DNA from: Malacoraja senta
Taxonomy: Eukaryota
Direction: 5' to 3'
DNA length: 64,000 nucleotides
Assembly: GCA_038087875.1 (NCBI GenBank)
Contig: CM075990.1
Span: 4,776,001 to 4,840,000 of the forward strand
A program made the position numbers and the translations under genes. The notes under the pieces are model-generated. The model searched no databases, had not been told where the DNA came from, and saw nothing but the letters and a program-made list of their open reading frames with translations. Each line of letters opens with the position of its first letter. Within the stretch, counting starts at the first letter, position 1. Shown here piece by piece: positions 4,581 through 62,675 of the stretch.

Positions 4581-6290
4581 TGTGTCGGGAGAAACTGCAG
4601 ATGCTAGTTTAAAACAAAGACTGACACAAAAAGGGTAACTTAGGGGGTCAGGCAGCATCTTTGGAGAAAAGGAATAGGTCAAGATTCGGGTCAAGATCTT
4701 CTTCAGATTGAGAGTCTGGGGAAAGGGAAACGAGAGATATTGACGGTACGTAAGACAAATTAATGGAAGATATGCAGAAAGCAACAATAATCAAGGAAAT
4801 GTGGAACCTACAATGGTACATTGTTGGCTGTGGGATAGGTGATAACGAGCTATACTGACAGTGAAACTCAGCAGGCCAACAGTGAAACTGGTAAGACGAC
4901 TGGGGTGGTGATGGGAGAGAGTTACTTGAAGTTAGAGAAAAATTCATACCGCTGGATTTTAAATAATGTGTAGGAAGGAACTGCAGATGCTAGTTTACAT
5001 CGAAGATAGACACAAAATGCTGGAATAACTCAACGGAACAGGCCTCTGGAGAAAAGGAATGGGTGACGTTTCGGGTTGAGACCCTTCTTCAGACTGAGAG
5101 TCAGGGGAGAGGGAGACTAGAGATATGGAAGTTGGAAGGGTGTGAAAATGACAGATCAAAGCAGTCGATGATCATGGAAATGTACGATGGTTGTACAATT
5201 GTTGGCTGGGGGGGGGGGGGCAAGGTGTCAACGAGGCATACAACCAGTAACATTAATCAGGAGGACAGTGAAGCTAGTCGGAGAACTAGGGTTGGGGAGG
5301 GAGTCCACATCTCTGAGGATATGACATGGACATCACACGCTGCAGCACTCGTGAGTAAGGCAAGGCAGCGCCTTTACCACCTCAGGCAATTGAGGAAATT
5401 CAGAGTGTCTCCGAGGATCCTCCAGTGCTTCTACTCAGCGGCTGTGGAAAGCATCTTGTCTGGAAATATCACAATCTGGTTTGGGAATTGCTCTGCCCAG
5501 GACAAGAAGGCTCTGCAGAGAGTAGTGCGTTCGGCCGAACGCACTATGGGAACTTCACTCGCCCCTCTGCAGGAACTATACATCAGGAGGTGCAACTCCA
5601 GAGCCAATAAGATCATGGGAAACCCCTTCCACCCCTGCAACGGACTGTTCCAGCTGCTACGGTCAGGCAAACGCCTCCGTTGCCATGCTGTGAGAACGGA
5701 GAGGTTGAGAAGGAGTTTCTTCCCAGAGGCCATTAGGACTGTAAACTCCTATCACACCAGGGACTAACTTTACTGTACCATTCTACTGGGGTTTTTTTAA
5801 TTGTTTTTTTTCCCCCCTTTTTCCTTCCGCCCACAATATTTAATATGTAAAAGAATATGTGATTCTGTTCCATTCTGTTTGTTTGTTTTTTGCACAAAGT
5901 CCGCTAGCATTGTCACTTTTCATTTCACTGCACATCTCGTATGTATGTGACGAATAGACTTGACTTGGATGGAGAGAGGGAAAGCAGGGTTAAATGAAGT
6001 TGGATAAATCAATATTCATACCGCGGGGGTGTAAGTGAAATATGAGGTGCTGCTTTTCCTCCAATTTGTGCTGGGCCTCACTCTGACAGCGGAGGAGGCC
6101 CAGGACAGAAAAAGGTCGGTGTGGGAATGGGAGGGGACCGGAGTTAAAGTGTTTAGCAACCGGGAGACCTTAGTATGAAAGTCTACTCCTCCGATGTCCT
6201 TCAAACCTTCACCTTGTGATATGAGTTACTAGGAGTTAAAGTGTTTGGCAACCGGGAGATCAGGTAGGTTTTGGCGGAATGATGCGCTGT
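4581..6290 (-). mobile_element. Two tandem 5'-truncated Penelope-like elements (terminal repeat plus endonuclease C-terminus), the second interrupted by a LINE
   Basis: Repeat units start near 4581 and 4968; 5990-6170 on the minus strand encodes a frameshifted HFN..SHSHTDL.VLGLLRCQSEAQHKLEE..HLIF..PRGMNID tail of a PLE GIY-YIG domain; hammerhead-like motif at 5065-5092. Confidence 0.8.
5302..5967 (+). mobile_element. Rex1/Babar-like LINE 3' end (RT C-terminal region), nested in the Penelope-like element
   Basis: GVHISEDMTW...ARQRLYHLRQLRKF...FYSAAVESILSGNITIWFG...LQRVVRSAER...SFFPEAIR; (GACTT)n tail. Confidence 0.85.
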
Positions 6291-6334
6291 TTAGGTGTTT
6301 TAAATAAATAATAATAATGTGAGCTGATAAACCT

Positions 6335-6720
6335 CACCGTCATGGCGTCGAGCGGGGTGGCAACGGGCTCATCACGTGACGCGCGCCGGAAAGCGCGAGC
6401 GCCGGGCTGCTGCAAAGTGTCGCGCGGACGCTGGTTGCCATGGTTTGACGGGCCGGTCGGTCGGACGGACGGACATTGCGGCTCTCACCCGCCCCTCACC
6501 CAGCTCGACAAAATGGACAACTCGGGAACCGGCGGAGGCCTGCGGGCCGGCTTCGGCCTCTTCGGCGGCGGTGGCGGAGTAGGAGGTGGTGCGGGAGCGG
6601 CCGGCGGCTCGGTGTCAGATTATTCGCAGCCCGACCTTTCCCGTGTCCCCTGTGAGTATGACGCTGGCTAGGCCCGAGGCGCCGAGCACCAACTCGGCAC
6701 CGTCTTCGTCCTCGCTTAAA
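6335..6720 (+). promoter_or_regulatory. TIMM23: TIMM23 CpG-island promoter and first exon region
   Basis: CpG-dense; E-box/CLEAR-like TCACGTGAC 6372-6380, ETS-like CCGGAAA 6386-6392, X-box-like GTTGCCATGG 6434-6443, YY1-like CATGGCG near 6341. Confidence 0.75.
6513..6651 (+). CDS. TIMM23: TIMM23 coding exon 1 (mitochondrial inner membrane translocase subunit Tim23)
   Basis: AAAATGG Kozak context; MDNSGTGGGLRAGFGLFGGG...DYSQPDLSRVP; donor GTGAGT at 6652, phase 1. Confidence 0.93.
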
Positions 6721-6737
6721 GGGGCATGTCATTTGTA

Positions 6738-6980
6738 GATTAGATTAGATTTTATTTGTTGTCATTTGAATCCAGAGGTTCAAACGCAATTTGGTTTCTG
6801 CAGTCATACAAACAGGAAGAAGAACCAAGACACAACACAATTTACAGAAACATCCATCACAGCGAATTCCTCCTCACTGTGATGGAAGGCAAAGTCTTAT
6901 CTCCCCTGCACTCCCCATTCTCCTCCCGATGTCAGAGTCAAAGCCCCCGGCGGGCGATGGTAAATAAGTCCCGCGGCCAT
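6738..6980 (-). mobile_element. 3' fragment of a GC-rich non-autonomous retroelement (same family as 23250 and 28593)
   Basis: Shared TCCATCACAGTG...CTGTGATGGA hairpin, AATAAA and (AATCT)n tail on the minus strand. Confidence 0.65.
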
Positions 6981-7151
6981 GTAAACAAATAAGTCAGTTA
7001 TAACTGCCATTAAGTACTGGGCCTCATGGTCTCGACCCGAAACGTCGCCTATTTCCTTCGCTCCATAGATGCTGCCTCACATATTTACAGCAAATAAGTC
7101 AGTTATAACTGCCTTTTGATCTTGACATTAAAAATACAGCTACTCACATTG

Positions 7152-7375
7152 TAGATAGACGCAAAAAGCTGGAGTAACTCAGCGGGACAGGCAGCATCTC
7201 CGGAGAGAAGGAATGCGTGATGTTTCCGGTCGAGACCCTTCTTCAGAAGAGCAGTCTCAAAGAGAAGTCTCGACCCGAAACGTCACCCATTCCTTCCCTC
7301 CAGTGATGCTGCCTGTCCCGCTGAGTTACTTCAGCATTTTGTATCTACGGTGTAAACCAGTATCTGTAGCTCCTG
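7152..7375. mobile_element. Inverted pair of Penelope-derived terminal repeats (hairpin element)
   Basis: GCTGGAGTAACTCAGCGGGACAGGCAGCATC ... GATGCTGCCTGTCCCGCTGAGTTACTTCAGC arms. Confidence 0.8.
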
Positions 7376-7908: not shown

Positions 7909-8270
7909 TCCTGCACATTTTGGTTTGAGTAAGATAAAACTGCTTCTTTGCCTTATGTTCTTTATCTTAAAAAATACAGCAACTCACATTGGCTACGAGT
8001 AGGTTGTACATGCCCTTCAACAATTGATGAATTTTGCTAATTGTGAATTAAGTCAAGTCAAGTGAATTTTATTTTTCACACACACATACAAGATGTGCAG
8101 TGAAATGAAAGTGGCAATGCCTGTGGATTGTGCAAAAACTACAGAACAGAATCAGTATTTACATGTTAGAATGTCATTAACTTTGTTCGTAGTTATATGG
8201 CAAAACTGTAGATTTGCCTGATATTCATCCCTGAAGCCTGATACAAGGGAAATTACTCAAGTTTTCAAAT

Positions 8271-8370
8271 TGAAGGTAGACAAAAATGCTGGAGAAACTC
8301 AGCAGGTGAGGCAGCATCTATGGAGCGAAGGAAATAGGTGACGTTTCGGGTCGAGACCCTTCTTCAGACT
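8271..8370 (-). ncRNA. Penelope-derived terminal repeat with an intact minimal hammerhead-ribozyme motif (core 8340-8367)
   Basis: Minus strand reads CTGAAGA-A-GGGTC-TC-GACCC-GAAAC-GTC-AC; activity not shown. Confidence 0.65.
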
Positions 8371-16337: not shown

Positions 16338-19300
16338 GTGAGTATTTGTTCAATGCAGACTCCTTTCCCAATTCTATAAAGAGCAAGGAAGGCTATAGAT
16401 ATATAAACCATAGAATTTTGTAATCAATGTAAAGCTAAATTGATAAAGCGTGTAGGTGGTATGAAACAGAGGGACCCACTAGTGTTTTTCTCCCAAACTA
16501 GGTTTAATGAAGGGCCTTGGCCCAAAATGTCACCTATTCCTTTTCTCCGGAGATTCTGCCTAACTCCATCTAGAAGAAGCACATGCCATATTCAGATTTA
16601 TTTTTGTGAAAATCTATTAGTAAATCAAGAAAGGACATTGTGTGTGCATTTATGTTTGGATATTTTCAAGATAAATAAATCAATTGGTATTCCAGTGACT
16701 AAAAGTGGTTTCAGTGGCGCTCCTCTATATATTTAGACACTTTGATAATGCAAAATCTATAATTATACATTTTAACCATGTACGATACTATATCCTATTC
16801 ATGTAGATGCAACCATGTATAAGTTGCAGATTTTCGATACTGTATAAATCTGTAACCTATACCTGTTGCATGTATGTACAAGTCTGCCATTTAGAGGATA
16901 GGCGTTTTACATAAAAGCCTTCCTTAAATTGAAAATGCACATAACTTCCTTACCTCGTCCCCATCCATAACATTTGGATTAATAGTGTGTGTTTGGCTTG
17001 CATTAGTGGTAGGGAAGTTGCTGCCTGTTACGTATTACTCCATGAGGGGGAGTTGCACTTGTGTGCTGTCATTCTCACAGCTGGTGAATCTGGGTTCCTC
17101 TCTAAATCTGAAAGCTCCGAGTCAGAGGAAATGCCTTGCATGGATTTCAAGGGTGCAAATTCCATACTAAGCACAGATTTTCTGTGGGGCATGAAGATGT
17201 GATTATTCTTATTGGAGTAAATCGGTGTCATGGAGCTAAATTCTATTACGTAACCTATTGGGCTTGCAAACTGTTCCCGAAGTACTAATCATTATAAATG
17301 TAACCATAAAGCTCCATAGTGGAGATGGAAATGTTATAGTGAAATTAGGCAGTTCAAAACACTTGCATCTGAATGTATTTATGACCTTTTTTTTACGTTG
17401 TCCAAATGCAAGTTTGTTTTTGTATCAGCAGGGGTTGTCGTATGTGTTCTATTGCCGATGAATTAGTTTTGAAAAGTTATATCTAGTTGGAATAGGGAAA
17501 TGTCATGAGTAACAACTCTGGTAGACAGGCATATAATTATTTATTATTAGATGAAGGTTGTCGGCCAAATTGGCAGAATTCCCAGAGACTGAGCAGTCTT
17601 GAATGATCACTTGAACCACAGTAACGGGCAAATCTTTGCTCTAGGTTTATCATTTGGTACTGAAAGATTATATGTTGAGCAATGCAATCTTTTTACTGCC
17701 GAGTATTAACCTAAATCACGCAATCCAAATTCTATTGGATCCAAAATCATCTGACACGAAGGCCCACGTTTTTGGCTATTTGGCATACAACATTTGTTGC
17801 TTCAATAACATTCAATGGCACCTGTGACATAATATTGAGAGCTGAATCAACTTGGCTGTGTTTTTGACCAGTTAAAATATATTCCTCATTTCCAACTTTT
17901 TGAAGCCTGGATTGGTGCATTTTTTTCTTTTGCATATTACTTACACTGATAATATCATTGTATATTGCACTTAAATACCACAGTGTCCAAGGTGTGCATT
18001 CCTATGAGGATGCAGATTTTGAAGAAGGGTTTCGACCCGAAACGTTGCCTATTTCCTTCGCTCCGTAGGTGCTGCGCACCCGCTGAGTTTCTCCAGCATT
18101 TTTGTCTACATAAATAATAAGGTTTTGTTTCAAACATTGATGACTGAGAATAGCTTGCTTGCTCTCTGTGCTTGGTGCTGAGAAGCCCTTGGGGTGGGGG
18201 AAACAATGCATGTAATGTGTGAGAGGAAAAACATGAAGGTTGGAGCAAATGAATTTTGAGATGCTTTAGTAGAGCTTTGATCAGCATGGTTTTTGTACCT
18301 TGATCTCTTTCTTGCAGTGTTGCTGAGCTGACAGGTTCTTTTTTGATTAGATTAGCAGTTAATTGTGACACAGGCACAAGATGTTTCATTAAAAATACCC
18401 CCCACCTTCCATTAAAAAGCTGGCAAATCCATTCAGCTGAAACTAGGGGAGGCTTGTGACTTCTGAGTGGAGGCTAAAGTCCATTGTAGTTAAGTGCTGG
18501 AGTCGGGTTAACTCCACTGTTCAAATTGGTAGCATTGACTGGTTCCCAGCAAGGCAGAGAAATATGACCACTAATGCCTATGGAGCAAGTCTTCAGCTCC
18601 ATTGACATTGGGAGAATGGTTGGGGGTTGGGTGTGGGTGGGTGTGTGTGTGTGTGTGTGATCTCTCTTTGGTTTAATTCAATTTATGTTTTTTTAATTTA
18701 TGTCATTGCACAAATGTTGTACAAGTGTCAACATTTGCGTCCATTGAATCTAGATGCTGTCTTTTGCCAGTGAGCCTGTGGGCAGGATCTTGAAGACTAT
18801 CAAGACAATGTACCTGTGCTATGAGAAGCCTGGTGGTCCACTGGGCCTCTGGTCAGGCTCAAGTAAAAGTGTGTATGGGGAAACAATGAAATAAGGGGCA
18901 GGTGATTGGATTTGAGCAGCTTTGTTTCCCTGCCACTCCACTGAACACATTAATTTTCCTGTTTCTGCATTACGCAGAATTGGACAAAAGGTGAATACAG
19001 GAAATGGTTTGGGACGAGACAGGATGGTAAAATAGACAAGTAGTGATAGATTACATTTAATACAGCATAATATGAAATACTGAATATTTGGGGATGAAGC
19101 TAAGAGGCAATACAAATTTAAAAACAAACTGTTGAAGGAACTCAGCCGATCAGGCAGCATCTGTGGAGGGAATGGACAGATTACATTTTGCATTTGGATC
19201 TTTCTCCAGATTTTTTTTGGGGCGGGAGGTGGAACTAGGCTGGAAGTATGAGATGGTGGTGGAGTAAGACCTGGTAAGTGATAGATGTATACCAGGGCTC

Positions 19301-19984: not shown

Positions 19985-20830
19985 AGGGTCAGGGAGGGGT
20001 GTGTGTGAATCAGTGCGGGGTGGATAGATGGCGGGGGGGGGGGGGGGGGAGGGGAGTTGGAAGGCAGTCGGTGCAGAATGGATGGATTGAGGCAGGTGAA
20101 TTAGTACGTTTTGGTTGGAGTAGGTAAAATTGTGAGGGGAGAGCACCGGGGATGTCAGTGGTGTTGAATGGGGGGTTCAGTACGGGATGGATGGGGGTAG
20201 ACAAAAGTGCTGGAGAAACTCAGCGGGTGAGGCAGCATCTATGGAGCGAAGGAAATAGGCAACGTTTCGGGTCAAGACCCTTCTTCAGACTGTTCCCCCC
20301 ATTCTTCTTGAATGGGAGGATCAGTACAGGATGGATGGGGGGTGGGGAGATCAGCGCAGGATGAATGGGGGGGAGTCAGTACAGTGTGGATCGGAGGGTC
20401 TGTGCAGGATGAATGGGCGATCATTACAGGATGAATGAGGGGAAGGTGCAGGGTAAATGGAGGGTGGGTCAGTATGGGATGAATGCGTGGATTAGTACAG
20501 GATGGATGGGGGATCAGTACAGGATGGATGGAGGAGAAGTGCAGGATGGATGGGAAAGGGGTAAGTACAGATTGAATTGGGGAACGAGTGTAGGATGTAT
20601 GGGGGGGGGGGTGGCAGGAGAATGAATGCGAGGTGGATAGGGTGATCAGCGCAGGATGAATAGATGGGGGGGGTAGATGGGGAGGGGAGCACAGGGGATG
20701 TCAGTGAGGACTGAATAGAGGCGGGAATGGGGATCAGTGCGGGATGGAGTGGAGGGGTCCCAGGATTAATGGGGGGGGGGTGGAGGGGGCGTACAAGAGA
20801 GAGAGAGAGAGAGGGAGAGGGAGCTAGGTG
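19985..20830 (+). repeat. G/purine-rich degenerate minisatellite (GGATGAATGGGGGATCAGTACA-like unit)
   Basis: Recurrent GGATG(A/G)ATGGG / ATCAGT(A/G)CAGG units and long G runs. Confidence 0.75.
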
Positions 20831-20994: not shown

Positions 20995-21425
20995 ACGTGA
21001 CGTTTCGTGTTGGCGGCTGTTGTGCGGGGCAAAGATACTAGGTGCGGGGTGTCGAAGGGTCGGAGCGAATGACGGGTCCCGCACAGCGGCCGCGACAGCA
21101 GCTCCATCTCCTCCTCCTCCCGCCCCCCGCCCGCCCTGATAAGGGCCTCTGCTTGTAAATCCGCTAACGGGCTTTCAAAACAAACTCTCCCGCACTCCGA
21201 GGCTTCCCCCTCCCTCCCTCCTCCCGGCCTGGGAGTGCGGGAGAGTTTGTTTGAAAGCGGTTATCGCCGTTAGCGGGTTTACAAGCAGAGGCCCTTCTCA
21301 GGGCGGGAGGAGGAGGCAGTGGCGCTGCTGCCGCTGTTCGGGGCCCGTCATTCGCTCCGACCCTTCCTCACCCCGCACCTAGTATCTTTGCCCCGCACAG
21401 CCGCCGCCGACACAAAACGTCACGT
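20995..21425. repeat. GC-rich imperfect palindrome with ~200-bp arms
   Basis: 20995-21203 pairs with 21227-21425, e.g. TGTGCGGGGCAAAGATACTAGGTGCGGGGTG / CACCCCGCACCTAGTATCTTTGCCCCGCACA. Confidence 0.93.
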
Positions 21426-22404
21426 TCCTTTTCTCCAGAGATGCTGCCTGACCTGCGGAGTTACTCCAGTTTTTTGTGTCTATCTTCGGTACAAACCAGT
21501 ATCTGGTTGCCAAGCCGGGCAAAATGACTCGGTGTTTAGGTTGCCCGGCGGCGCTTTGAGTGGTCAGTGGCACCCGGGCAACCGCTAATTTCGAGCCCTG
21601 TATACAGGTGAGGGGTTGATTGGCAGATGGGTAGAGATAGTGACAAGCTCTGAAGGAAATCAACAATCTGAAACATTTCCGCCTCTTTCCTCTCTCCACA
21701 TTTGTGTGTGTTTTCACAATTCTCATCGGCAGTGTTTTGCTTCTCAGTTCTAGCGCTGTCTTTTGATGTCCATCTCTGCTTGCATTCCCTTTACTTACAT
21801 CAAGATCATCTGAAATTAACTGGTCAACCATCTTCCCCAAGTCAGCACCACCACTACCACTTATCAGTCAGTCTCTCCTGACCTCCACCCTATCACAGAA
21901 AGGGGGGGGGGGGGGAGAGGGGGGGTCTTCTTTCCACTCCACTCCTTTTTTTTCTGTAAGTTAAAGCATGCTTTATGATGAGTTCTGACGAAAGGTCATT
22001 AACCCAAAATGTTAATCTGGTTCCTCGCCACATTTGCTGCATGACTCGGAGTATCTCCAACATTCTTCATCTTTGTCTCCCATTAATCTTCAATGAAATA
22101 CATGTTCCCCGCATGCTGCAAGACCCGCTGTGGCTTTTGATGTTCAGTGTCAAAATCATTTATTTCCCTTTAGTGTGAAACCAAATCATGTCGATAAACA
22201 CAATTAAGACAAATGCCTCTTCATCTGCTTGAAATGACTCCCACTGTCAGTAATCCATTTTGTGTAGCTCACTTCAAACAGGACCTCAGTCTGGAAGGAT
22301 TAATTGTATAATTACATTGCCTGGTACTTTAAATGGTCACATTGATATAGCCCTATGGTTGCATTAATTAAATCCTTTGATAATTACCTAATTTTATTTT
22401 TGTG

Positions 22405-23923: not shown

Positions 23924-26689
23924 TTATCCCATTTTCTACTACATCAGTTTAACATTTTCATTTAAATAACTATTGTATTTACTTCAATTTACTCAAGCTG
24001 ATGATTCCAAGTATTTGGAAATTTGTTCTGACATCGACCCTAAAATTCCAAAAGCAAATGCTACAGCTTAAATGTGAATGGTTCCTTGAATATTTGAAAT
24101 CGGGTGACTTTATTTTGCAACGGTCCATGTTTGTGCAGCTGTGTTGGTTTGTGTACTGCTCATCTTATCAGTCTGAATGATGCAAATGGGGAATAATTCT
24201 TTGGACCAAGTGTATGGGTTTTATGCTGCGACCCTGCATTTTACACGTCCCAATATGTGTGCTGAGCATCTGAATAATGCAACAGTGAGCAATGTATTTG
24301 AACAAATAAGCTGTTTAAAAAAAAAAAAATTTCACCCTCCTCCTCACTACTGCAAAGGCCACAAGATAAAATTAAAACCACAGCATACTTTAAAATCCTA
24401 TTGGATTTAATGTTGAATAATTGTGATCAGAGTAAGCACAATGTTCTGTTTAATTAATTATGTAACTTAAGTGATATAACTTCCAAAGACGTACATGTTT
24501 GTAGGTTAATTTGGCTTTGGTAAAATCATCCCTACCGTGTAGGATAGTTCTAGTGTACAGGGATCGTTGGTCTGTATGGACTCAGTGGGCTGAAGAGCCT
24601 GTTTCCGTGCTGTATCGGTAAATTAAAAAAATAATAATAATTTCAATGAGTGTTTAAACATAAATCCCTCTGGAAGTTTATGAGTTTTTTTTATCAATAT
24701 CTTCTCAGTAATACAATGTGTGTACTTCAGACCAAGTGCAGATGTAACTTGGATTGGTAAAACAGAACAAATGTGCTTTGACATTCTGTTTTTGGAAAAT
24801 ATAAGTCGATCCTGAGGCTTATCTAGCCCTTGATGTAAAAAGGTCCGTCGCTGAAGCTTTGGAGAGGATGCTGATTCCTGGAGGCCTCAGTTCCTCCTGG
24901 CATCGGTAAAATTGTCCCTATTGTGTTGGATTGTGCTAGTGTACAGGCCGCCTCCTTTAGCTACTGATCGGGTGAAGTGGTTCTGGTTCATAACGTACTT
25001 GCTGCAAGGACCTTGGCTCCAAATGTGAGTTTTCGGAATCAAGTGGCAGCTTTTTAAAATTTTTTACTTGATTTGGAACCTCGAAAGTATGTACTTTTTA
25101 TACAGCCATTTATTTAACCTGTTTAAAGTGGATTTCTTGACTGATGTTAATGATATTTTTTCCCTTTATCCTTAAGCCCATTAACTTGCTGACAAATGCT
25201 TATTATTTTATATAAAGTTGGTACAAAAGACATTTGTATTTTTTAGCATATCAACAGTTCCACTGGAGATTTGGGCAGAAAGTTTAGGTTGACAGCTTGT
25301 AGCAGTGCTAAAGAAAATCTAGCACTAGTCTCGTTGGTATGCTTTAGTTTCGCTGACACTTAAAAAATAAAAGGTTCCATGTGCCCTTTTGGTTGTGGGC
25401 AAAGCACAAACTCAGCACTATTTTGTCTATTCTGTTTCCTACATAATAATGTTTACACAAATGAAAATTTCAGTGGATTGCAAAGTGCTTTGGGATATTT
25501 GGTCACTAAGAACATTACAGAAATACATCTGTCTGTACCATTATATTTGCTATAGGAAACATGAGGGCTCAGAATTCATTTTAGTAGCCAGAGTGTATTA
25601 ATTCCAAGTAATGTATAGAAACATGGATGAAACGGTTTCAACAGCACTGCAGTTAATTATCCCTGGGTGCGTGACAAGTTTTAGGAAAAGGCCATTGATG
25701 AATGAATAAGTTTATTGGCCAAATATTCACATACAAGGAATTTGCATTGGTGCTCTGCCCGCAAGTGACAACATGACATACAGTGACAGTTAGGAATGAC
25801 ACACAAAACATTAAACATTAATAATAAACATTATTGATTAAGCATGTGAATTAAATAAAATACCAGAGCAAAAGGAGGCTACAGATTTTTGGTTATTAAG
25901 TAGAGCTACCACTCATGGGGAAAAAAGCTGTTTTTATGTCTGGCTGTGGCAGCTTTGACAGTCCCGGAAGTCTATTCCTGCCTGATTAAGTTGAACCTGA
26001 GCTTTCTAATTATACCCCTCCAATCCATTTTTTTCTTTTATTAGTTGCACTTGGAACTCATTGTTACCACCTGTTTCATTGACCTTGATATTTTTGCTGA
26101 CAATCTCCATACTCCACCCGTTTAGAATAGCTCTTATTCCTTTGATATAATCTTTTTTATTAAATGCCATGCACTGCCTACCACTAGCTGTATAAAATTT
26201 AGTGCATTGAATTATCAGAATAATTGCTGCCAGTTTTACTGCTGCCTTTAGAAATATTTTTTAATTACTTTATAGAGCCTTGTTTTATTTCTCTGGCTTG
26301 TCCATAGTCAAGACAATTTCAACAGCTCCATTGCAGTGTTTCTTTAATGTATTTTGTTTCTAAACCCAACCCATGCAAAACTTTGCTAACACCCCCAGCT
26401 TATGACTCTGGACAATCATTTCAAAGAATCATATTTCAATCTTTCCCACAGTCTTGCTCCACTGTTTTGCACCACCTTCCCACAGCTCTATGACCTCCAT
26501 GATCCCTCTGCTCCTCATTCCCACCTTCAATCCCTCAGTCAGGTTTTGAAAGAAATCCCAATCCCTAAAGAAAATTATGTACAAAGGAGCTGCAGATGCT
26601 GGTTTACACTGAAGATAGACACAAGCGGGACAGACAGCATCTGGAGAGGATTGGGTGACGTTTCTGGATAAGGCCCTTCTTCAGGCTAC

Positions 26690-43650: not shown

Positions 43651-44496
43651 CTGTGGGAAAATTAAATACCAGAGCTAATTAAAGACAATTCCAACTGCTT
43701 TACACCATACAATGAATCTTAACGCCACTCTGCAATCAATTACATTAAACTGATCAGGGATGCTTACATATGAACTAAGCTTCAAATGCCAAATACAGTA
43801 AAACTCCATTAATTCACATCGCGACTTACGGTCCTGGATGGGCAGATTTTCATACTATCGAATGTTGTTTTATTTATTCTAAAATATACTTATAATTTTT
43901 TTTTTTTAAATAACGTTACACAACATTTCAGTAACATCGAGGAGCACAGGAACCGGGGCCCAGGTGAGTGGCAAGTGCTAATGTTACCTGGTGAGGCTGA
44001 TAATAACCAAATGTATCTCCAACTGACCAGACAGCAGATTTTCAGTGCTATGCTGTAATCCACCTGTCCCACAACTCAATGCCATAATATGATCTGTTTT
44101 TCTTCTAGTGTTCCCTCCAACAAGCATCGTTGGTTTACCTATCGTTTTAGTGGATTCAATATCCACTATAGTTATCCATTTAGTTACCTATTGCCATTTT
44201 GGAAGCAGTAAATATTTTCAATTTCCACTATCCCTTGAAAATATTGAATTCACCTCTCCCCAATGTGCAACTCTTCTGTAAACTGATGATGTTCCCCCAC
44301 TACCTCAATAAAAGTAATCAAAAATTAATTTGAAGTTCCAATAGTTGCCAAATTTGATTGCCCCCTCTCTGTTGCGTACCTGTTGTGATAGATTCATTAC
44401 AGAGATGCAGCCCACATTACAAACCATCAAATATATTTTTATTAAAAAAAATATCAAAGTAACTAAAACCGGCTACCCAATTATGAATTCACTTTG

Positions 44497-44652
44497 GTAC
44501 ACAAAAATGCTGGAGAAACTCAGCGGGTGCAGCAGCATCTATAGTGCGAAGGAAATAGGCAACGTTTCGGGCCGAAACCCTTCTTCAGACTGAGGGATGG
44601 GAGGAGACAGACCGAGGGCTGAGGAAGGGGAGGAGACAGCAAGGGACAGCAA
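44497..44652 (-). mobile_element. Penelope-derived repeat with hammerhead motif (44561-44588) and 18-bp TSD
   Basis: TSD AATTATGAATTCACTTTG at 44479-44496 and 44653-44670. Confidence 0.8.
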
Positions 44653-45599
44653 AATTATGAATTCACTTTGTTTGGCATGGCTAGATCCTCACTATGCGTT
44701 TAATGTGATCTAATTAACATTGAGATTTGATAAAAAAATGTATTGGTAATTAATAACTAGATGGGTTAGAAATCAATTATAATCATTTTTTTATTATAGT
44801 TTTTTTAATTGCATGCTGATTACTATTTGAAATACCTGAACTCTGGCCTAGGTAGTCATTAATTACAAATACTTTTTATCAAATCACAATGTTACTTCAT
44901 CTCTTCCTATGCTGACTAAGAGTGAAACTTGGCTTATCATGCCTATTACACCAAGTTAAATCCAGTTTTACCTGTACCAACGCAAAAATATAAGGGCAAT
45001 GGTCCTCAATAGTTCTAAGTTATGCAATATAATAGCTGTCTCCTTCGTTCAAATGACTGACAGAGGTTGCTCAGCAATCATAAACAGTTTTCTCAACAAA
45101 GTTATATCCTCTAAATTTGTAAATAAAATGCATTGAATTGGAGAGATTACAAAACACTCCACTTCAATATAGACACGGGGAAACTACCGATGCTGGTTCG
45201 GGTCTCAACCCCTAAATTATGCCCATCCATGTCTTCCAGATATGCTACCTGACCTGCTGAGATACTCTGACTGCACTTCAATACCCAGTAGAGAGAGATG
45301 AACTAAACCACACATAAACCCAAGCCTTAAAACAAAAATGGAAACATTCCCATCACAATTATCCTGAGGCAGAAGGATCAAGATACCTCACACCGAATTA
45401 TTCATAACTAGGCAAAGTCAAGAAAGAATGTGTAATAAATGCCAATAAATGTCATCTCTTAAGAATCAGGATGTTGTTCAAACATATTTCCCTTTCAGCA
45501 TTCAAAGGGAACATTCGCTTCACTCGAATTTCCGTAGAACATTCTTGTATAACCACAAGACGTACAACTGATGCCGTTTTACTACTTCCTGCTCTCCCA

Positions 45600-45845: not shown

Positions 45846-47153
45846 TCGCACGAGTTCCCGGAGCCACAAGAGCTGATCTTGTAGTCTGTAGTAAAAACAA
45901 AACCGGGGTCACTCGGCAGGAAAGGTAGCATTTGTGGAGGGAATGGGGTGGTTGGTATTTCAAGTCAAGACCCTGCCGGAGTGAGACAGCACAAGGTGAT
46001 TGTGAGGGCAAGGCAGGTGAGGAAAGAGGCAGTGTACAGATAGAGCCAGGTGGGAGAGAGGAATGTGGTGAAGTTGGGAGAAAGCAGGGTGATAGGTACA
46101 GACACAATGAGAAAGAAAAAAGTGGGGTCAGATAGAGCCAGAAATTGGAAGGTGGCGAGTGGAGACGAGAGACTGTGCATGCCAGAAAATGATAAGTGAG
46201 GCGATAAAGGTTTAGAACACTTTGAATGTATTGTGCTGGGTAATGGGCAGAAGCATCCTGGTGAAGGAGGGGAGAACTGGGAAAAAGAAAGGAGCACAGG
46301 GAGTAGTGAACCAGAAATAAGAAAAACCCTTCGATTGTAGACTGACCAGACATAACCATAGTCATAGAGTGTGGACGCAACTCGCCCACACCGGCCAACA
46401 ATGTCCCAGCTACCCTAGTCCCACTTGCCTGCGCTTGGTCCATAATCCTCCAAACCTACTTATTTGCAGCTACAGACACAGGTTAGCAGTTTTTTTGACA
46501 GAATACGCAGGTTACAAATACGGCTGCTTCTACTTATGGCCCCCCCCCCCCCTGTTTTTTGCCATGATCTATCACTATACCCTCGTCCCTTTTGATATTT
46601 CCCTTCTCCTCCTCTCTCACTGTATCGTAAAACTTTAGTTTTTATCTTGTCCTGACAAAAGGCCATCCCGAGAGTATTTTCTCCCACCACCCAGATACTG
46701 CCCAACCTCCTGAGCATTTCCAACAAAAAATGTTTCCACATTTGTAACAACCGCACCTTTTATTTCAAAGAATATTGAACTTTAAGGGTGGGGAAAGTTA
46801 TTTCATTGCAACACAGAGTTGCTGGTTGATGAACTCAAACTGCTTGAAGTCATGACTGGCACGATTAACAAGCTGTTTGGAGACAGCATCAACCATTCTA
46901 CCATATATAGAAATGTATAAATAATTGTCGCTTAACACAATTTTGTACCATCGGTGTGGAGTTTGCAAATCCTCCCGCCTTGACTAACTTCACCTTAAAA
47001 AGACACGTATTGGTAGGTTAATTGGCCATGGTATTACCCCTGGTAAGTAGTAGACGTGGGAAGGTGGGAGGAGCAGGGTAGCAGACACAGAATAGCAGGG
47101 AGCCCTTTTGCGGGTTTATGGCTCGACGAACCTACAGCTAAACTGATACCCAC

Positions 47154-47267: not shown

Positions 47268-47486
47268 CTGCAAGAAAAGACCCAAGGTTAATGCAAAATA
47301 ACATAGGTGCTGCAAATACTGAAGTCAGCAATACTGAATGTTAAACAAAATATAAAGTACTGGAGAAACTCAGCGGGTCAGGCAGCATCTTGGGAGGAAA
47401 TGGAGAGATGACATTTTGGGCCAGCACTTTTCTTAAGACTGGTTTTTGTATTCAGATTTCAATACTAACTTTAACATGAATTATAT

Positions 47487-48666: not shown

Positions 48667-49332
48667 CTACATCAGATCAGAAATTCATTTAATCAGTTGA
48701 TTTATGCAGCCAAAACATCAAGTCAATTAACATTGGTCACTGCCACCAATCTTAGACCCAGGGTTATACATGGCACGAACGCCAACTAATTCACTATCCA
48801 AAAACTTGGAACTCTATTTGGTCACCTGCCTTTTCCTTGAAAACAATTCAGCCCCAGAGACCAGATTGTTACATCTGTTAAGATAAACATGTAATTTCTC
48901 ATTGAGGTTTAGATTACAAGCCAAAAGTCTCAGAATTAATTCATAATTTCATTATGAGCATAGGCACTGTCACAATTTCTCCCCCACCACTTTGGTGATC
49001 AAAGCAGCTTTTGCATGGTAGAGATTATACTTCTCAAGTAACTGTGTCATGAAGCAATTCCTATTGACACCTTTTAACTCGGGTATGAAAGAAGAACATT
49101 TCTTTGGTAATAACATAACAAATGTGCACAATCTAAACGTACAAAGTTGCAGTTCTGATAGCAAGAAACTAAAGCTATTGGGGAACTCAGCGAGTCAGGT
49201 AGCATGTGTGAAGGGAAGTGGATAGATGATGTTTGGGGTTGAGACCCTTCCTCTGGGCTTACAAGAGACAGGACCTAGGTAGGTGTGGGAGTCGGTGGGA
49301 TTGTCATAAATGTCAGTGGATAGTTTGTCTAC

Positions 49333-50213: not shown

Positions 50214-50264
50214 CTGGAAATGAAGTGTCAATATCAATGAAAGGAGGTCTTTTTGCCTCTTTTC

Positions 50265-53960: not shown

Positions 53961-54204
53961 CTTGGTCTTAGCTGAAAAAAATGGAAGTCACGATAAATTC
54001 AACTGCGGACGTGGGTGTGCAAGATTAGCAGGGAGGGTTTCACATTGAATCAACCCTCACCAAATTACAGAACTTTAAAAGCAGCTCTAGGTTAATCAGT
54101 TAACTTACAAATGGCATGTCGATGTTATTCCAAATTTTGTGCACGCAGGTTTTATTTCCAAAATGTGTATCAATAATCAAATATCTCAGAAAATTTTGCT
54201 ATTC

Positions 54205-54415
54205 AACTGCAGATGCTGGTTTAAACCAAAAATAGACACAAAAAGCTGGAGTAACTCAACGGGACAGGCAGCATCTCTGGAGAGAAGGAATTGGTGATGT
54301 TTCGGGTCGAGACCCTTTGGGTCTGAAGAAGGGTCTCGACCTGAAACCTCACCCATTCCTTCTCTCCAGAGAAGCTGCCTGTCCCACTGAGTTACTTCAG
54401 CTTTTTGTGTCTATC
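54205..54415. mobile_element. Inverted pair of Penelope-derived terminal repeats with central hammerhead-like motif
   Basis: ATAGACACAAAAAGCTGGAGTAACTCA ... TGAGTTACTTCAGCTTTTTGTGTCTAT; TGGGT-CTGAAGA...GAAACCTC-ACCCA at 54318-54355. Confidence 0.8.
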
Positions 54416-54771
54416 CTTGTTGAACAAACCGGTTGTAAAGTTTTGGATCACAAAAAGTTGTCACAAACTCATCGATTAACTTGAGAAACATTGCTGCTGA
54501 CATTTGCATGCACAAGCTAGGAGGAATTCCAATAATTCTGCATTTTAAATATCTTACATTTGCAGATCATTTACTATAGTCATCCCTCTGAAAATGACTT
54601 TGAAACTCTATTCTAAAAAATTTTAATTGACACAAAATCCCAGCAGTTGGATTACTGTACAGTGTATCACTCAATAGCACCGGCAGATTCTAAACATTTT
54701 CCGATACATTAGTACCTATCTGTAAATATAATATCTATACTGATAGAATATTAAAAGGTCTGAAAAAGGTT

Positions 54772-56230: not shown

Positions 56231-57099
56231 TGTTCTCGACCCAAAACATCACCCATTCCTTCTCTCCAGAGATGCTGCCTGTCACGCTGAGTTACTCCAG
56301 TATTTTGTGTCTGTCTATCATCGAATATTAAAACACTGCAGGTTTGAGGATTCACAACTAAAAGTTATTAAGCTATATCCTCGCATGCACACAAATTGCC
56401 TCAGTACAAATATTCAGAATAAACTTTCATCAATACTTCTTGGCTCCAGCCTTAAGTTGTTTATAGTTCATTTTCTGTCAGAATCCTGCAGAGGGTAATC
56501 ATATGAAGATAACAATAACCTAGATTAAAATCTTTTCGAGAATCCAACAAAGTATACTCGTCTAGAGATAACAAACAATCCGCTGAAGAAACTCCGCGGG
56601 ACAATAGCATGGGGGGTGGGGGGAGGAATGCAACTTTTCGGATCAAATCCTGCATCAGTCCAGACCCGCCGAGTTCTTTCGGCAGTAAAATGGAGACACA
56701 ATAAACTGCAATGCTGGAATCTTGAGCAGAAAACAAAGAGCTGGAGGAACTCCGCAGATTGTTTGCTGCTCCAGATTCCAGCATCTGAAGTCTCTTGATT
56801 CTTTATCTTCAGAGACGTTTGTTTTTCCATGCAAATAAAATATTTAGGTGGAATGGGACAACACATAACATTTCTTATGCTGCTGCACAAAGCTGGTGGG
56901 GCGGCATTCTTGTCCAACTCTCGTCTACCCACAGCTTCTTAACCCCAACTCACTTCCTTGACTTCACCCAACTGTCTGCTAGTATAAACTGAACACTTTA
57001 GGATGCTATGCAGGCACAATGCACGCCTAGTTGGAAATAGCTTCTGCTGGGAAGGAAGTCAGATCCCGTCGCCGATCAGTGCAGGCACAATGTACTTGC

Positions 57100-57793: not shown

Positions 57794-57980
57794 AGTGTAG
57801 GAAAGAGCTGCAGATGCTGGTTTACACCGTAGACACAAAATGCTGGAGTAACTCAGCGGGACAAGCAGCATCTTTGGAGATGAGGAATGGGTGACGTTTC
57901 GGGTCGAGACCCTTCTTCAAACTGAAGGGTCCCATTCCTCATCTCCAGAGATGGTGCCGATCCCGCTGAGTTACTCCAGC
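57794..57980. mobile_element. Inverted pair of Penelope-derived repeats
   Basis: GCTGGAGTAACTCAGCGGGA / TCCCGCTGAGTTACTCCAGC arms; TCTCATGAA duplicated on both sides. Confidence 0.8.
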
Positions 57981-58788
57981 AAGTCTCATGAATTTATTCA
58001 CTCACCCCTTCTATCATCAATAACACAAAGGGGATAAGCACTATTTTATGCAGCATTTGCAAACATTAACATGAGCATTTAGGTGCAAGAACCAAGAAAA
58101 AGGCAGGTGCTGCCAAACAACCTAAAATTTTAATTTATCTGCATTCTTCACAAATCCCAACTTGCCTTGAAAGCTTCCTTGTTTTTTGCTTTCATTCCGA
58201 TGTGCAGGAAGCTGAGGGTGAAGCAAGCTTGCTGAGAGATATGAGATTTCAGAAACAAGGAACTACAGTTACTGGTTTACTAGAAAAGATCCAAAGGGCT
58301 AGATGGATAGGTGACGTTTTGCGGAGCCCTTCTTCAGACTGGGAGGGAGGGGGAGGGGTGGGAGGGAGAGAGAGCTGGAAGAGAGGGGATAGAGAAAAGC
58401 TGAAAGAGTTGGATAAGAGATTGTAGTTGTTCATGTGGGCGCTGACAGACGGTACTTAGTAGCACCAGCCTGCATTGTTCATCAAAATCATGGGAGGAAA
58501 TTGAATGCTTCCTCTGGCAACAATAGGAAGAACTTTAATTTTGAGTTGCAAGTTAGAAACAGGCCAAAAGAGGTTTACCAGAACGCTGCCTGGATTGTTT
58601 GTTACAATTAACTATCATGCGAGGTTGGACATTACTGTGCTCTCCTCCAGATTTGAGTCAATGCCATGTCCAGACTTACTCTTTTGCTCGATCCGTTATT
58701 CCTTCGTATTTGCTTGCCATGCCCGAACTACTAACATTTTTCGTAAAGAACACTAATTTCTTTCTGAAAACCAACATCTAATTCTCTC

Positions 58789-58936
58789 ATTTTATCTCTG
58801 TACTGCCCACTCCCCTGACATCAGTCTGAAGAAGGGTCTCAACCAGAAACGTCATCCATTCCTTCTCTCCAAAGATGCTGCCTGTCCTGCTGAGTTACTC
58901 CATTTTGTGTCTATCTTCGATCTGCAGTTTTCCTGC
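58789..58936 (+). mobile_element. Penelope-derived repeat with hammerhead-like motif (58826-58853), 15-bp TSD
   Basis: TSD ACATCTAATTCTCTC at 58774-58788 and 58937-58951. Confidence 0.75.
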
Positions 58937-60084: not shown

Positions 60085-60929
60085 TAAACGAGAGTAAGTC
60101 TGAGGTCATCCTTCTCGGCCCCTCGGACGCAATCAAAATGATAGCAGGCAGCCTTGGAAGCCTTACCCCACGACTCAAACCTCATGTCAAAAACCTTGGC
60201 GTGATATTTGACTCAGCACTGAAATTTGACAAACAAATGGTAAAAGCTAGCTTCTTTCAGCTTCGGACGATAGCTAAAATAAAACAATTCCTCCAGTTTG
60301 ATGACCTCGAAAAGATCATCCACGCATTCATCTCCTCCCGCCTAGATTACTGCAACTCCCTTTACACTGGCATCAGCCAATCTTCCCTGTCCCGCCTGCA
60401 ACTGGTCCAAAATGCCGCAGCGAGACTCCTGACGGGCACCCGAAAAAGGGACCACATCACCCCGATCCTGGCCTCTCTCCACTTGCTCCCGTACAGTTCC
60501 GTATAAACTTCAAGATCCTCCTCCATGTCTACAAAGCCCTCAATGGGCTTGCCCCCACCTACGTAAAAAGTCTTCTCACCCACCACTCCACCTCCAGGCC
60601 CCTCAGATCGGCCGACTTGGGGTTGCTGAATATCCCACGGTCTAGGTATAAGCTCTGGGGCGACCGCGCCTTTGCGGTTGCAGCCCCTAGACTGTGGAAC
60701 AGCATCCCCTTTCCCATCAGAACTGCCCCCTCCATCGACTCTTTTAAGTCAAGACTAAAAACTTATCTATACTCCCAAGCCTTTCCTGACATCCTCTGAG
60801 TGAGGGCTACATGTATATATGTATGTAGTTTGTTTTGTTTATGCTATTTTTATAACAAATGTAAAGCACTTTGGCCAACGAGAGTTGTTTTTTAAATGTG
60901 CTATATAAATAAATGTGACTTGACTTGAC
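60085..60929 (+). mobile_element. L2-clade LINE 3' end
   Basis: VKNLGVIFDSALKF...HAFISSRLDYCNSL...LQLVQNAAARLLTG..KRDHITPILASLH; GDRAFAVAAPRLWNSIP; (TGACT)n tail. Confidence 0.92.
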
Positions 60930-61129
60930 TAGAGTAGCATAGTTTACTTCAAGGTATATTCATCTTTGGCCTTCAATCTCTTTGCAGAGATTATTCCTTT
61001 TCTTGACTAATTCCTTTTGTATCGTTTATTATTTGCCACGTGTACCAAGATAGGGTAAAAAGTTTTGTTTGCATGCTAATAGATAACAGGGATGCGATTT
61101 CGCTGGTTCTCCATTCGACCACTTAGACA

Positions 61130-62240
61130 ATAAGAACACTTACGTCAGGTTGTTATTCATCAACTACAGATCAGCGTTCAACACCATCACCTCCAAAGGT
61201 TATCAAACTGCGGGAACTAAGTGTAGGAAGGAACGGTAGATGCTGGTTTAAACCAAAGATAGACACAAAATGCTGGAGTAACTCAGCGGGGGCAGCATCT
61301 CTTGAGAGAAGGAATGGGTGACATTTCTGGTCGAGCCCCATCTTTGGACTGATCGGGACTGAGAGGGAACTAGGACTCTCATCCCTTTGCAACTGGATCC
61401 TTAATTTCCTCCTTGATAGACTATAATCAAAATGAATTGGCAACAATACTTTCTCCTCGATAACAAGCACCTCAGGGCTGTGTGATCAGTCCCCTGCTCT
61501 ACTCACTCGATACACATACACAGTTCCAACGCCATCTTAAAATATGCCGACAATATCACCATTGTTGGATAAATAACAGGTAACAATGAGTATAGGAGGG
61601 AGATTGAAAGGTGCAAGAACAACAATCAGCAAGACCAAGGAGCTGACTGTTGACTTTAGAACTTGACTTAATCGACAGGTTGGCAGTAGAAAGACCAGTT
61701 CAAGTTCATGGACGTGCACATCTCTGAAAATCTGCCCTGGTCCCTGCACAGTTATACAAGCAGAAGAAAGCCCATCAACACCTCTATTTCCTGAGAAGAT
61801 TGAGGAGATTCAGTACATCGGCAAAAACTCTCTTGAACTTTGTCGAGGTCTACGATACAGGGCATATTGACTGGTTGTATCACGGCCTGGCTCGGCAGCT
61901 TGAAAATCCATGATCAAAGGAAATTACAAAAAGTGCTGGACACTGCCATCATGGACATCATAGATACCAACTCCCCATCATCAAAGGGATCTACAGGAGA
62001 CACTGCCTCAATAAGGCAGCCAGTATCAAAGGCGCAAACCACCCTGGCCATGTTCTCATTTTACTCCTACCATCGGGAAGATAAGAGTTTGAAAACCGTG
62101 ACCACCAGGTTCAAGAATTGCTTCTTCCCAACAACCATCAGGTTCTTGAACACTACACAGTGCTAACCTCAGCTATGAACAATGGACCGTCTTTTGTTGC
62201 ACCAAGGACGTTGGTTTTTCTTGCATTATTCAATTTCAAT
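61130..62240 (+). mobile_element. Degenerate Rex1/Babar-like LINE interrupted by a Penelope-derived repeat (about 61221-61355)
   Basis: Fragments LKYAD, DVHISENLPW, LYFLRRLRRF, GILTGCITAWLG, TTRFKNCFFPTTIRFLN with frameshifts. Confidence 0.75.
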
Positions 62241-62521
62241 TCAACTTTAATGTCATTGCACAAATACTGAGTATGGGTACAACGAAATGCAGTTTTGCGT
62301 CAGTCCGTAGTATTGAGTATTAGTATTGAGATTATTAATTTATTGAATTTCTGTTCATAATGCAGTAAATTGGAATACAGGACTACGCCCTAGCTTATGG
62401 GAGGTCTGTGCAGTGGTCTGATAACAGCAGCGAAGAAGCTGCTGCTGAATCTGGTGGTTTGTGCTTTACCTGATTATAGTGCAAGACTTTTCAATGAGAA
62501 ACAACTACAACTGAAACTACT

Positions 62522-62675
62522 GTTTAAGAAGGAACTGCAGATGCTGGAAAATTGAAGGTAGACAAAAATGCTGGAGAAACTCAGCGGGTGAAGAAGGGTC
62601 TCGACCTAAAACGTCGCCTATTTCCTTCGCTCCATAGATGCTGCCTCACCCGCTGAGTTTCTCCAGCATTTTTCT
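62522..62675. mobile_element. Penelope-derived inverted pair with 17-bp TSD
   Basis: TSD CTACAACTGAAACTACT at 62505-62521 and 62676-62692. Confidence 0.8.

Follow-up and report, generated by a model that had tools for sequence, protein, structure and literature searches.

A minimal hammerhead motif in the abundant 3′-terminal repeat of a Penelope-like retrotransposon of Malacoraja senta

Introduction

A stretch of 64,000 nucleotides (nt) from the genome of Malacoraja senta (GenBank assembly GCA_038087875.1, contig CM075990.1, positions 4,776,001 to 4,840,000), analysed here in full and referred to as the window, contains many copies of a short dispersed repeat that opens with a motif resembling a hammerhead ribozyme. 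The locus raises the questions of where this repeat originates, whether the motif is a hammerhead, and whether it is cut. A sequence-only reading of the window had attributed the repeats to Penelope-like elements (PLEs), the least understood class of retrotransposons, whose hammerheads have a role that is still debated. The best explanation found here is that the repeat is the 3′-terminal 95-135 nt of a PLE and that its first 28 nt form a minimal type I hammerhead motif, predicted to cleave itself after GUC or GUU as a dimer or with the help of the protein of the element. We regard this explanation as probable; the Penelope origin and the minimal-hammerhead architecture are both known biology.

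In the minimal hammerheads of Penelope elements the core boxes follow the type I order, helix III lacks a loop, an additional base separates A9 from G10.1, G10.1 pairs with C11.1 and positions 15.2-16.2 are palindromic (PMC4209133). Penelope insertions are recognized by heavy 5′ truncation, partial tandems, an adjacent inverted 5′-truncated copy and an optional tail of 30-40 bp (PMC11167929 and the available part of PMC8557442).

Origin of the repeat

The genome to which the window belongs, 1.94 Gb in 6,182 contigs, was searched with the GIY-YIG family, and in one locus (L003) an endonuclease frame (Pfam, 32.1 bits, above cut-off) was followed about 105 nt on by a complete repeat. When the 203-amino acid (aa) frame of this locus served as query, 28 of the 30 fetched loci had the repeat in the same orientation, beginning 95-127 nt downstream of where the match ended. 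With obvious duplicate loci counted once the linkage was 24 of 26, the exceptions being L018 and L021. Reverse transcriptase (RT) homology was present upstream of the endonuclease in 11 loci (L019, L042, L047, L049, L051 and L082-L087), sharing 28-37% identity with a protein of 759 aa that this genome also encodes and in which Pfam recognizes RVT_1 and GIY-YIG domains. The repeat is thus directly seen to be the 3′ terminus of a Penelope-type element encoding an RT and a GIY-YIG endonuclease, as the sequence-only reading had supposed from the motif.

A 634-aa open frame in L082 matches RVT_1 (26.2 bits, E 7.4e-6) and GIY-YIG (19.9 bits, E 9.3e-4), both just below the Pfam cut-offs, and carries the CX4CX2C linker motif as CNRKRCNTC about 38 residues before the GIY-YIG block. 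This linker motif is given as a mark of the Neptune and Nematis clades of PLEs in the available part of PMC8557442, and on this ground the parent element may tentatively be assigned to these clades. In the aligned loci the unit runs from the endonuclease stop through a pyrimidine-rich 3′ untranslated region (UTR) of about 105 nt to GACATCAGT and CTGAAGA-A-stem II-GAAAC-GTH, continues in a body of about 65 nt and ends with an optional tail of 37 nt. The longest copies of the parent element begin with a variable array of 28-nt tandem repeats, of ACCTCGCCGCCTCACCGGG...-type units (L084:2750-3100 and L087:2497-2930).

A very high-copy, non-autonomous PLE system had also been proposed. The very high copy number is evident from the 20,906 genomic matches of a single 27-mer described below, while the term non-autonomous is not needed, because an autonomous coding element terminates in this very sequence and the copies resemble 5′-truncated insertions of that element. 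They are ends left by truncation of an autonomous family and not retrozymes.

Two other candidate parents were rejected. The only long RT frame of the window, at 54863-56248(-), belongs to a CR1-like long interspersed element (LINE), whose 3′ end with (TTTCTATG)n stops well short of the repeats at 54204-54419. The GIY-YIG family that predominates in this genome encodes a 759-aa frame in tandem arrays and is not similar to the repeat. A 3′ splice site was also considered for the pyrimidine tract and CAG before the motif, and no copy without the 3′ UTR was seen among the aligned loci.

The dominant family constitutes a second, unrelated Penelope-like family with many identical 759-aa RVT_1 + GIY-YIG frames at tandem periods of about 1.5, 5.3 and 6.9-7.5 kb, found in L013 (G000:C5485:1-10000), L014, L015 and at G000:C14:18.24-18.41 Mb. 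It looks young, and about 350 nt before the frame it has a core-like motif of its own, CTGACGA-A-GCTA...TAGC-GAAAC.

The repeat and its hammerhead motif

Copies were called with a 403-position profile of the 3′ end of the element, built from genomic copies, at E <= 1e-3. The profile identified 45 copies in the window, 20 on the plus and 25 on the minus strand, spanning positions 2267 to 62807 (Table 1). Their total length is 4,626 bp, or 7.2% of the bases, and 28 of the 45 cover the whole hammerhead block. More than 20 copies on both strands had been reported, which holds, some copies even starting before the first coordinate of that report. The earlier density of roughly one copy per 3 kb was too low, since about one copy was found per 1.4 kb and one whole-motif copy per 2.3 kb. 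A typical copy begins at or just before CTGAAGA, is about 95 nt long and ends in ...CCAGCATTTTGTGTCTAC(C), with an optional extension to ...TTCGGTGTAAACCAGCATCTGCAGTTCCTTCCTACAC.

The motif CTGAAGA-A-GGGT(C)..(G)ACCC-GAAAC-GT(C/T) is present where it had been reported and far above chance expectation: the 12-mer CTGAAGAAGGGT, with at most one mismatch, has 17 matches on the two strands of the window against a mean of 0.47 and a maximum of 3 in dinucleotide shuffles. A strict descriptor was defined as CTGANGA, 0-1 extra base, a stem II with a closing G-C pair and a length of 4 bp or more, a loop of 3-8 nt, and GAAAC-GTH. It was matched by five window copies (Table 1) and had no matches in 300 first-order Markov versions of the window (19.2 Mb, both strands). 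Seven best copies had been named, of which these five are intact; at 29989(+) and 58826(+) the 3′ strand of stem II has decayed, to GATCT and AACCA, respectively. The diverged variants reported with CTGACGA at 21985 and CTGATGA at 27974 both exist and look like older, CpG-decayed relatives; the latter was missed by the profile at the threshold used. The reported loop variants are real as well, and the UUCG form constitutes a whole sub-lineage with 25,034 genomic copies of a 25-mer pattern.

The four features by which the minimal form is defined recur in the first 28 nt of the repeat, namely the CUGANGA and GAAA boxes, the extra A after A9, the G10.1-C11.1 pair and the ACGU palindrome (PMC4209133), and the earlier assignment to the minimal type I hammerhead of Penelope thus fits. 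Over some 130-165 copies the non-CpG core positions are 93-99% conserved. Of 140 copies, 134 have A as the extra base after position 9. G and C predominate at 10.1 and 11.1, and ACGU is the majority sequence, eroded only at its CpG. Among 163 copies, position H17 is C in 118, U in 40, A in 4 and G in 1, a composition that fits the rule that the base at the cleavage site is not G; a third, old lineage (family C) reads GUA at this site.

Between the two lineages A and B, none of 37 columns has changed in the block made up of the 28-nt motif and the 9 nt before it. Elsewhere, change between these lineages amounts to 5% in the last 150 coding nt, 29% in the 3′ UTR, 12% in the body and 16% in the tail. 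The hammerhead block is therefore the best-conserved non-coding block between the two lineages, and the core proved better conserved between subfamilies than its flanks, on which the sequence-only reading had made itself dependent. Only one difference between lineages is present in stem II: A11.4 became G, which turned the U-A pair into U.G, and this form was amplified to the 25,034 copies mentioned above. Like the replacement of A by G at position 1.1, it is a one-sided change that preserves pairing, and at lineage level only one-sided changes of this kind occur.

Abundance in the genome

The exact 27-mer of the motif has 20,906 matches in the genome. A 25-mer pattern with a free loop has 44,987 matches with U-A at 10.4-11.4, 25,034 with U.G, 108 with C-G and 1,524 with a C.A mismatch, and all reversed-pattern controls gave 0. 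Copies of this pattern in which position 10.4-11.4 is paired number 70,129 genome-wide. Copy density is 0.70 per kb in the window and about 0.29 per kb in another 330 kb sampled, after removal of 60 copies that had been selected for. Roughly 0.6-1.4 million fragments may thus be present in 1.94 Gb, a figure extrapolated from biased samples and not counted. The contigs of four runs displayed no starts or ends; in runs from three organisms such contigs hold the repeat at enormous summed depth, which is a depth and not a copy number.

Copy ends and a possible short element

Ends were compared in 202 copies from 394 kb (the window and the other 330 kb), a biased sample including the 60 selected copies outside the window. 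Most copies are severely 5′-truncated, and a first look at the genome gave 107,298 candidates with the endonuclease query against 10,752 with the RT query. The 3′ ends are bimodal with the two modes 37 nt apart: 100 of the 202 lie at profile positions 355-381, 72 at 387-403 and 30 elsewhere, the two alternative termini being ...GTCTACC and ...TCTTACAC. This matches the optional tail of 30-40 bp (available part of PMC8557442; PMC11167929) and the two RT start sites of the Poseidon element of Anolis (PMC11167929). Six head-to-head inverted pairs are present in the window, and partial tandems occur in L082 (66-nt units), L088 (a 38-nt duplicate) and L089. Flanking repeats of at least 8 nt (duplications of 8-13 nt) border 12 of 61 tested copies as compared with 12 of 300 random flank pairs.

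The inverted pairs at 57856-57966, 2267-2462, 2832-3044, 7146-7373, 54204-54419 and 62522-62680 fold as long hairpins and draw sub-threshold matches to microRNA precursors in Rfam (MIR847, 37.3 bits; mir-551, 29.6 bits), and such hairpins are a likely source of false microRNA calls. Motif "tandem arrays" with a period of about 2.45 kb on contig 1 were rejected as Penelope tandems, the host tandem unit already holding one solo copy. In this array (L106 and L107, G000:C1:3.87-4.04 Mb) there is one solo copy per unit on each strand, with an 11-nt duplication ACTCTGAAGTA; because each unit holds one solo copy, amplification of the array came after the insertion.

The 5′ ends of the copies are not evenly spread. 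Among 141 copies not linked to coding sequence, 58 start at profile positions 265-282 and 23 of these at 271-273, which is AGT just before CUGA, so that the latter start 1-3 nt ahead of CUGA; for the window copies alone the fraction at 265-282 is 25 of 45. Examples are the copies starting at 8370, 18019, 20294, 29980 and 33355 of the window, L087:1311 and L031:2654. This pile-up would be expected if the repeat were a self-contained element of about 100 nt with an initiator-like start of its own at TCAGTCT (the A at profile 271, 3 nt before CUGA), copied to that 5′ end by the Penelope RT, its copies being mostly full-length. Target-site duplications abut the starts at 29980(+), 33355(+), L087:1311 and L031:2654, and the 9 nt before the motif are those found invariant between lineages. 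TCAGTCT fits the initiator consensus, YYANWYY. An internal, TATA-less promoter of the initiator type is described for the Drosophila virilis Penelope pseudo-LTR in the available part of PMC2377424, where the hammerhead follows shortly after (PMC4209133). The starts are, however, fuzzy (266-284) and sometimes preceded by extra bases, and the pile-up could partly reflect local alignments that stop at the variable 3′ UTR. The conserved block could instead be a strand of helix I, and the Anolis RT needs sequence downstream of its start site (PMC11167929), whereas tail-less solo copies have none. On balance a self-contained short element is possible, if rather doubtful.

The short element and the Penelope origin of its sequence are not mutually exclusive, and both can hold. 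A template RNA starting at TCAGTC is a reasonable proposal, and many copies would then be full-length products of a short template instead of truncations. The further step, that a mini-Penelope of about 100 nt composed of an initiator-like start, a minimal hammerhead and an RT start module propagates itself as a short element, with some 0.6-1.4 million copies making up several percent of the 1.94-Gb genome, is put forward as a speculation that we do not favour.

Evidence bearing on cleavage

The explanation preferred here includes a predicted self-cleaving hammerhead, and a number of observations weigh against this part of it. Helix I is weak, with two contiguous pairs (U-A or U.G, and G-C), a 2x2 internal loop and two more pairs. 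The helix I of the Penelope minimal hammerhead has 4-5 bp and that of a D. virilis variant 2 bp (PMC4209133); because only two pairs are contiguous, the published 4-5 bp are not reached by the repeat. A competing hairpin, GAAGAAGGGU/ACCCAUUCCUUC, is the predicted minimum free energy fold of the local 56 nt (-11.8 kcal/mol) and sequesters half of the core, and the two differences between lineages that fall on its 3′ strand leave it paired. No hammerhead family of Rfam reached its gathering score anywhere in the window, and at E <= 10 over 57700-59000, which includes three copies, there was no hammerhead, only sub-threshold microRNA-like hairpins from the inverted pair. Penelope hammerhead families are rich in helix covariation (PMC4209133). 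The four genome-wide pattern counts gave no excess of a two-sided change in stem II, the C-G double change occurring in 108 copies where about 850 would be expected if the T-to-C rate of the U-A lineage (1,524 of 44,987) held for the U.G lineage. None of the loci contained a full-length unit flanked on both sides by repeats with the motif, and L084 and L087 have no adjacent upstream copy.

Neither copy ends nor U6 junctions show a trace of cut RNA. Only 4 of the 141 copies start at profile 295-306, and 1 at 300-304, so the predicted cut is not marked by 5′ ends, and the 66-nt tandem of L082 joins at ...CTCTGTG|AAACGTC... rather than at the predicted cut. At none of the 30 best U6 loci is the repeat fused to the 3′ end, although three are fused to CR1 tails. 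An exact pattern in which the post-cut sequence follows the U6 3′ end at a distance of 0-3 nt had 0 matches in the genome; as only 48 U6 matches entered the comparison and mismatches were excluded, old or diverged U6 chimeras would be missed. These points agree with earlier work, in which Penelope minimal hammerheads cleaved poorly in vitro (PMC4209133) and cleavage in the Anolis element needed protein, was dispensable for insertion in vitro and left no read ends in RNA-seq (PMC11167929).

In an alternative reading the conserved block would serve mainly as a protein-binding or promoter element, for example through the GAAGAAGGGU/ACCCAUUCCUUC hairpin, the hammerhead being vestigial or inactive. 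The predicted fold and its maintenance between lineages, the weak helix I, the lack of a cleavage trace at copy ends and U6 junctions, the poor cleavage in vitro (PMC4209133) and the dispensability of cleavage for insertion in vitro (PMC11167929) all point in this direction. All catalytic core bases are nevertheless kept in two lineages and in the 20,906 identical 27-mers, H17 avoids G, and the extra base, G10.1-C11.1 and ACGU are specific to the hammerhead and not required by the hairpin. A vestigial hammerhead is for these reasons considered unlikely. Finally, it is highly improbable that an ordinary repeat came to carry CUGANGA and GAAAC around a small palindrome by chance: although copy number alone is a single observation, all copies descending from a few master sequences, the strict descriptor found nothing in the 300 randomized windows, its position is one at which hammerheads are known from Penelope elements, four features outside the core search are also present, and the motif is the most conserved non-coding block.

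Comparison with known systems

The repeat shares with the metazoan Penelope hammerheads (PMC4209133) the type I order, the lack of a helix III loop, ACGU, the unpaired base between A9 and G10.1 and the G10.1-C11.1 pair, as well as the location in a terminal repeat region and the occurrence mostly as single dispersed motifs from truncated elements, sometimes with two motifs close together on opposite strands. The stem II of the repeat has 4-5 bp as compared with 7-8 bp in Schistosoma, and its helix I has only two contiguous pairs, like that of the D. virilis variant. Within the genome the motif varies far less than that work describes, and it is far more numerous, with 70,129 copies compared with roughly 4,000 in the coelacanth and 9,000 in Xenopus.

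In the Anolis carolinensis Poseidon element PAc (PMC11167929), as here, the hammerhead lies shortly upstream of the 3′ end of insertions, there are two alternative 3′ ends 30-40 nt apart (the "tail"), and there is no sign of cleaved RNA as template; use of both strands, as in PAc, would explain the inverted pairs. The hammerhead of PAc overlaps the start of the reading frame, whereas here it follows the endonuclease stop by about 105 nt and no frame starts in the motif. The linker of the present element is of the Neptune/Nematis and not the Penelope/Poseidon type.

Non-LTR retrozymes, according to the available parts of PMC7229834 and Li et al. (2026, bioRxiv 10.64898/2026.07.22.740005), are likewise non-coding, with type I hammerheads, and related to Penelope terminal repeats. 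They form head-to-tail arrays with a hammerhead per unit and circular RNAs, whereas the present copies are dispersed singles with rare micro-tandems (66 nt in L082, 38 nt in L088), and Tandem Repeats Finder detected no array of the repeat in the window. The pseudo-LTR of D. virilis Penelope (Schostak et al. 2008, PMC2377424, available part; PMC4209133) has an initiator-type internal promoter shortly before the hammerhead, to which the putative start of the repeat would correspond, and a 2-bp helix I like that seen here, and the pyrimidine tract and CAG before the motif recall the intron end that abuts helix I there. In D. virilis 46 nt and an intron of 75 nt separate the start from the hammerhead, as compared with 3 nt for the putative start proposed here from sequence. 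The Schistosoma hammerhead elements resembling short interspersed elements (SINEs) are also short, dispersed and very abundant retroposons, which according to the available part of PMC6765202 possess a promoter of their own and a canonical hammerhead that makes tertiary contacts, whereas the present repeat is the end of a coding element. A SINE-type head derived from tRNA, 5S or 7SL RNA was not found: the window has no tRNA-like gene and nothing of the kind at Rfam gathering score, and the copies start at the hammerhead itself.

Other features of the window

Besides the copies listed in Table 1, the window holds CR1-like LINE remnants at 54863-56248(-), 54770-54860, 7883-7910, 4994-5767(+) and 36806-37486(+), comprising a 461-aa RVT_1 frame, a 3′ end with (TTTCTATG)n and two frames matching an ALKBH8_N-type domain. 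Elsewhere in the genome (L126, L128 and L129), U6 copies are fused at their 3′ end to a CR1-like LINE 3′ tail (...GATGATCAGCCATGATC...TTTCTATG). They represent chimeric U6-LINE retrocopies of the kind described for human L1, and many other U6 copies are followed by A-rich tails. A 420-aa open frame at 42412-43674(-) has a weak match to ARA70, a nuclear coactivator (E 8.2e-5, just below the Pfam cut-off), and may be a host exon. The lineage B copy at 20196-20294 has inserted in a tandem array (20314-20577) whose periods are 22, 45 and 93 nt. Old copies at 3255-3274 and 19167-19186 recur identically with their flanks on the same contig about 52.2-52.7 kb upstream, at G000:C14:4726513 and 4743015 (L100-L103), and because of this the start of the window seems to lie within a recent segmental duplication of about 50 kb.

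Table 1. Intact hammerhead motifs and copies of the PLE 3′ end in the window. Profile positions refer to the 403-position profile.
Feature	Position	Strand	Profile	Remarks
Intact motif CUGAAGA-A-GGGUCUCGACCC-GAAAC-GUC	8340..8367	-		Strict descriptor; identical to commonest genomic 27-mer
Intact minimal hammerhead motif, GUC form	5065..5092	-		Strict descriptor
Intact minimal hammerhead motif, GUU form	20261..20288	-		Strict descriptor
Intact motif, GUU form, UUCG loop	33358..33385	+		Strict descriptor; copy bordered on both sides by CTTTTAAT
Intact motif, GUU form, U.G at 10.4-11.4, UUCG loop	44561..44588	-		Strict descriptor
PLE 3′-end copy	2267..2373	-	287-396	Head-to-head with 2374..2462
PLE 3′-end copy	2374..2462	+	271-361	
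PLE 3′-end copy	2832..2962	-	262-391	Head-to-head with 2960..3044
PLE 3′-end copy	2960..3044	+	280-363	
Older family C copy	3237..3339	+	278-398	GUA-type lineage, CpG-decayed
PLE 3′-end copy + tail	4583..4731	-	253-402	
PLE 3′ UTR fragment	4870..4962	-	124-237	
PLE 3′-end copy + tail	4969..5113	-	254-402	
PLE endonuclease C-terminus remnant + 3′ UTR start	5970..6208	-	1-187	tblastn residues 562-633 of the 634-aa frame, 51% identity
PLE 3′-end fragment	7028..7080	+	283-334	
PLE 3′-end copy	7146..7247	-	273-374	Head-to-head with 7243..7373
PLE 3′-end copy	7243..7373	+	261-394	
PLE 3′-end copy	8265..8370	-	271-376	Lineage B
PLE 3′-end fragment	16502..16565	+	272-335	Stem II GGGCC/GGCCC variant
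PLE 3′-end copy	18019..18110	+	274-366	Lineage B
Older family C copy	19111..19279	-	197-372	
PLE 3′-end copy	20196..20294	-	268-366	Lineage B, inserted in tandem array
PLE 3′-end copy	21408..21505	+	288-387	
Old diverged copy	21984..22081	+	273-366	CTGACGA variant
PLE 3′-end copy	26580..26687	-	271-400	
PLE 3′-end copy	26979..27063	+	273-366	
PLE 3′-end copy	28502..28589	-	291-378	
PLE 3′-end fragment + tail	29361..29447	+	314-403	
PLE 3′-end copy	29980..30082	+	265-369	12-nt flanking duplication CTGTTCCATTAG
PLE 3′-end copy	33355..33463	+	271-381	Lineage B
PLE 3′-end copy	33664..33762	-	272-372	
Old diverged fragment	36858..36920	-	273-338	CTGATGCAGG variant
PLE 3′-end copy	39445..39533	-	277-366	Lineage B; 11-nt duplication TACTTAAATAA
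PLE 3′-end copy	41978..42085	-	254-363	
PLE 3′-end copy	44494..44610	-	251-368	Lineage B
PLE 3′-end fragment	45200..45267	+	282-348	
Old diverged copy	45891..45976	-	279-365	
PLE 3′-end copy	47309..47443	-	268-391	
Old diverged copy	49172..49254	-	275-354	
PLE 3′-end copy + tail	54204..54317	-	280-393	Head-to-head with 54321..54419
PLE 3′-end copy	54321..54419	+	272-370	
PLE 3′-end copy	56234..56326	+	285-373	
Old diverged copy	56575..56659	-	273-359	Stem II GGAU/AUCC
PLE 3′-end copy + tail	57796..57925	-	269-402	Head-to-head with 57920..57982
Inverted partial copy	57920..57982	+	290-354	Pair folds as long hairpin
PLE 3′-end copy + 38 nt of 3′ UTR	58788..58928	+	236-391	
PLE 3′-end copy + tail	61222..61360	-	257-402	
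Inverted partial copy + tail	62522..62602	-	320-403	Head-to-head with 62587..62680
PLE 3′-end copy	62587..62680	+	273-366	Lineage B
PLE 3′-end fragment	62751..62807	+	314-371	

Discussion

The propagation of the element may be depicted as follows, by analogy with the Poseidon element of Anolis (PMC11167929). The RT of the element would bind the body and tail region of its RNA, and cDNA synthesis would start internally at one of the two sites on a nicked target and proceed toward the 5′ end. Both DNA strands may serve, giving the inverted pairs. The hammerhead would process multimeric transcripts, in which two motifs would pair through the ACGU palindrome and so make helix III, while the RNAs copied into insertions would be mostly uncleaved.

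The genome of M. senta constitutes an unusually large natural record of these events, with 20,906 identical 27-nt motifs and about 70,000 copies that have both core boxes and a paired stem II. In this record the constraint on the hammerhead block exceeds that on all other non-coding parts of the element. Insertions start from two 3′ sites separated by 37 nt, as they do in the one element for which bench work exists, and the copied RNAs are mostly not cut at the predicted site, often ending 1-3 nt before the motif. The pile-up of 5′ ends raises two questions, namely at which position the template RNA begins and whether ribozyme action precedes or follows copying. In annotation it should be borne in mind that the tail of one element makes up about 7% of the window and that its inverted pairs mimic microRNA precursors. 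If the mini-Penelope is true, it would be one of the most abundant carriers of a ribozyme motif known.

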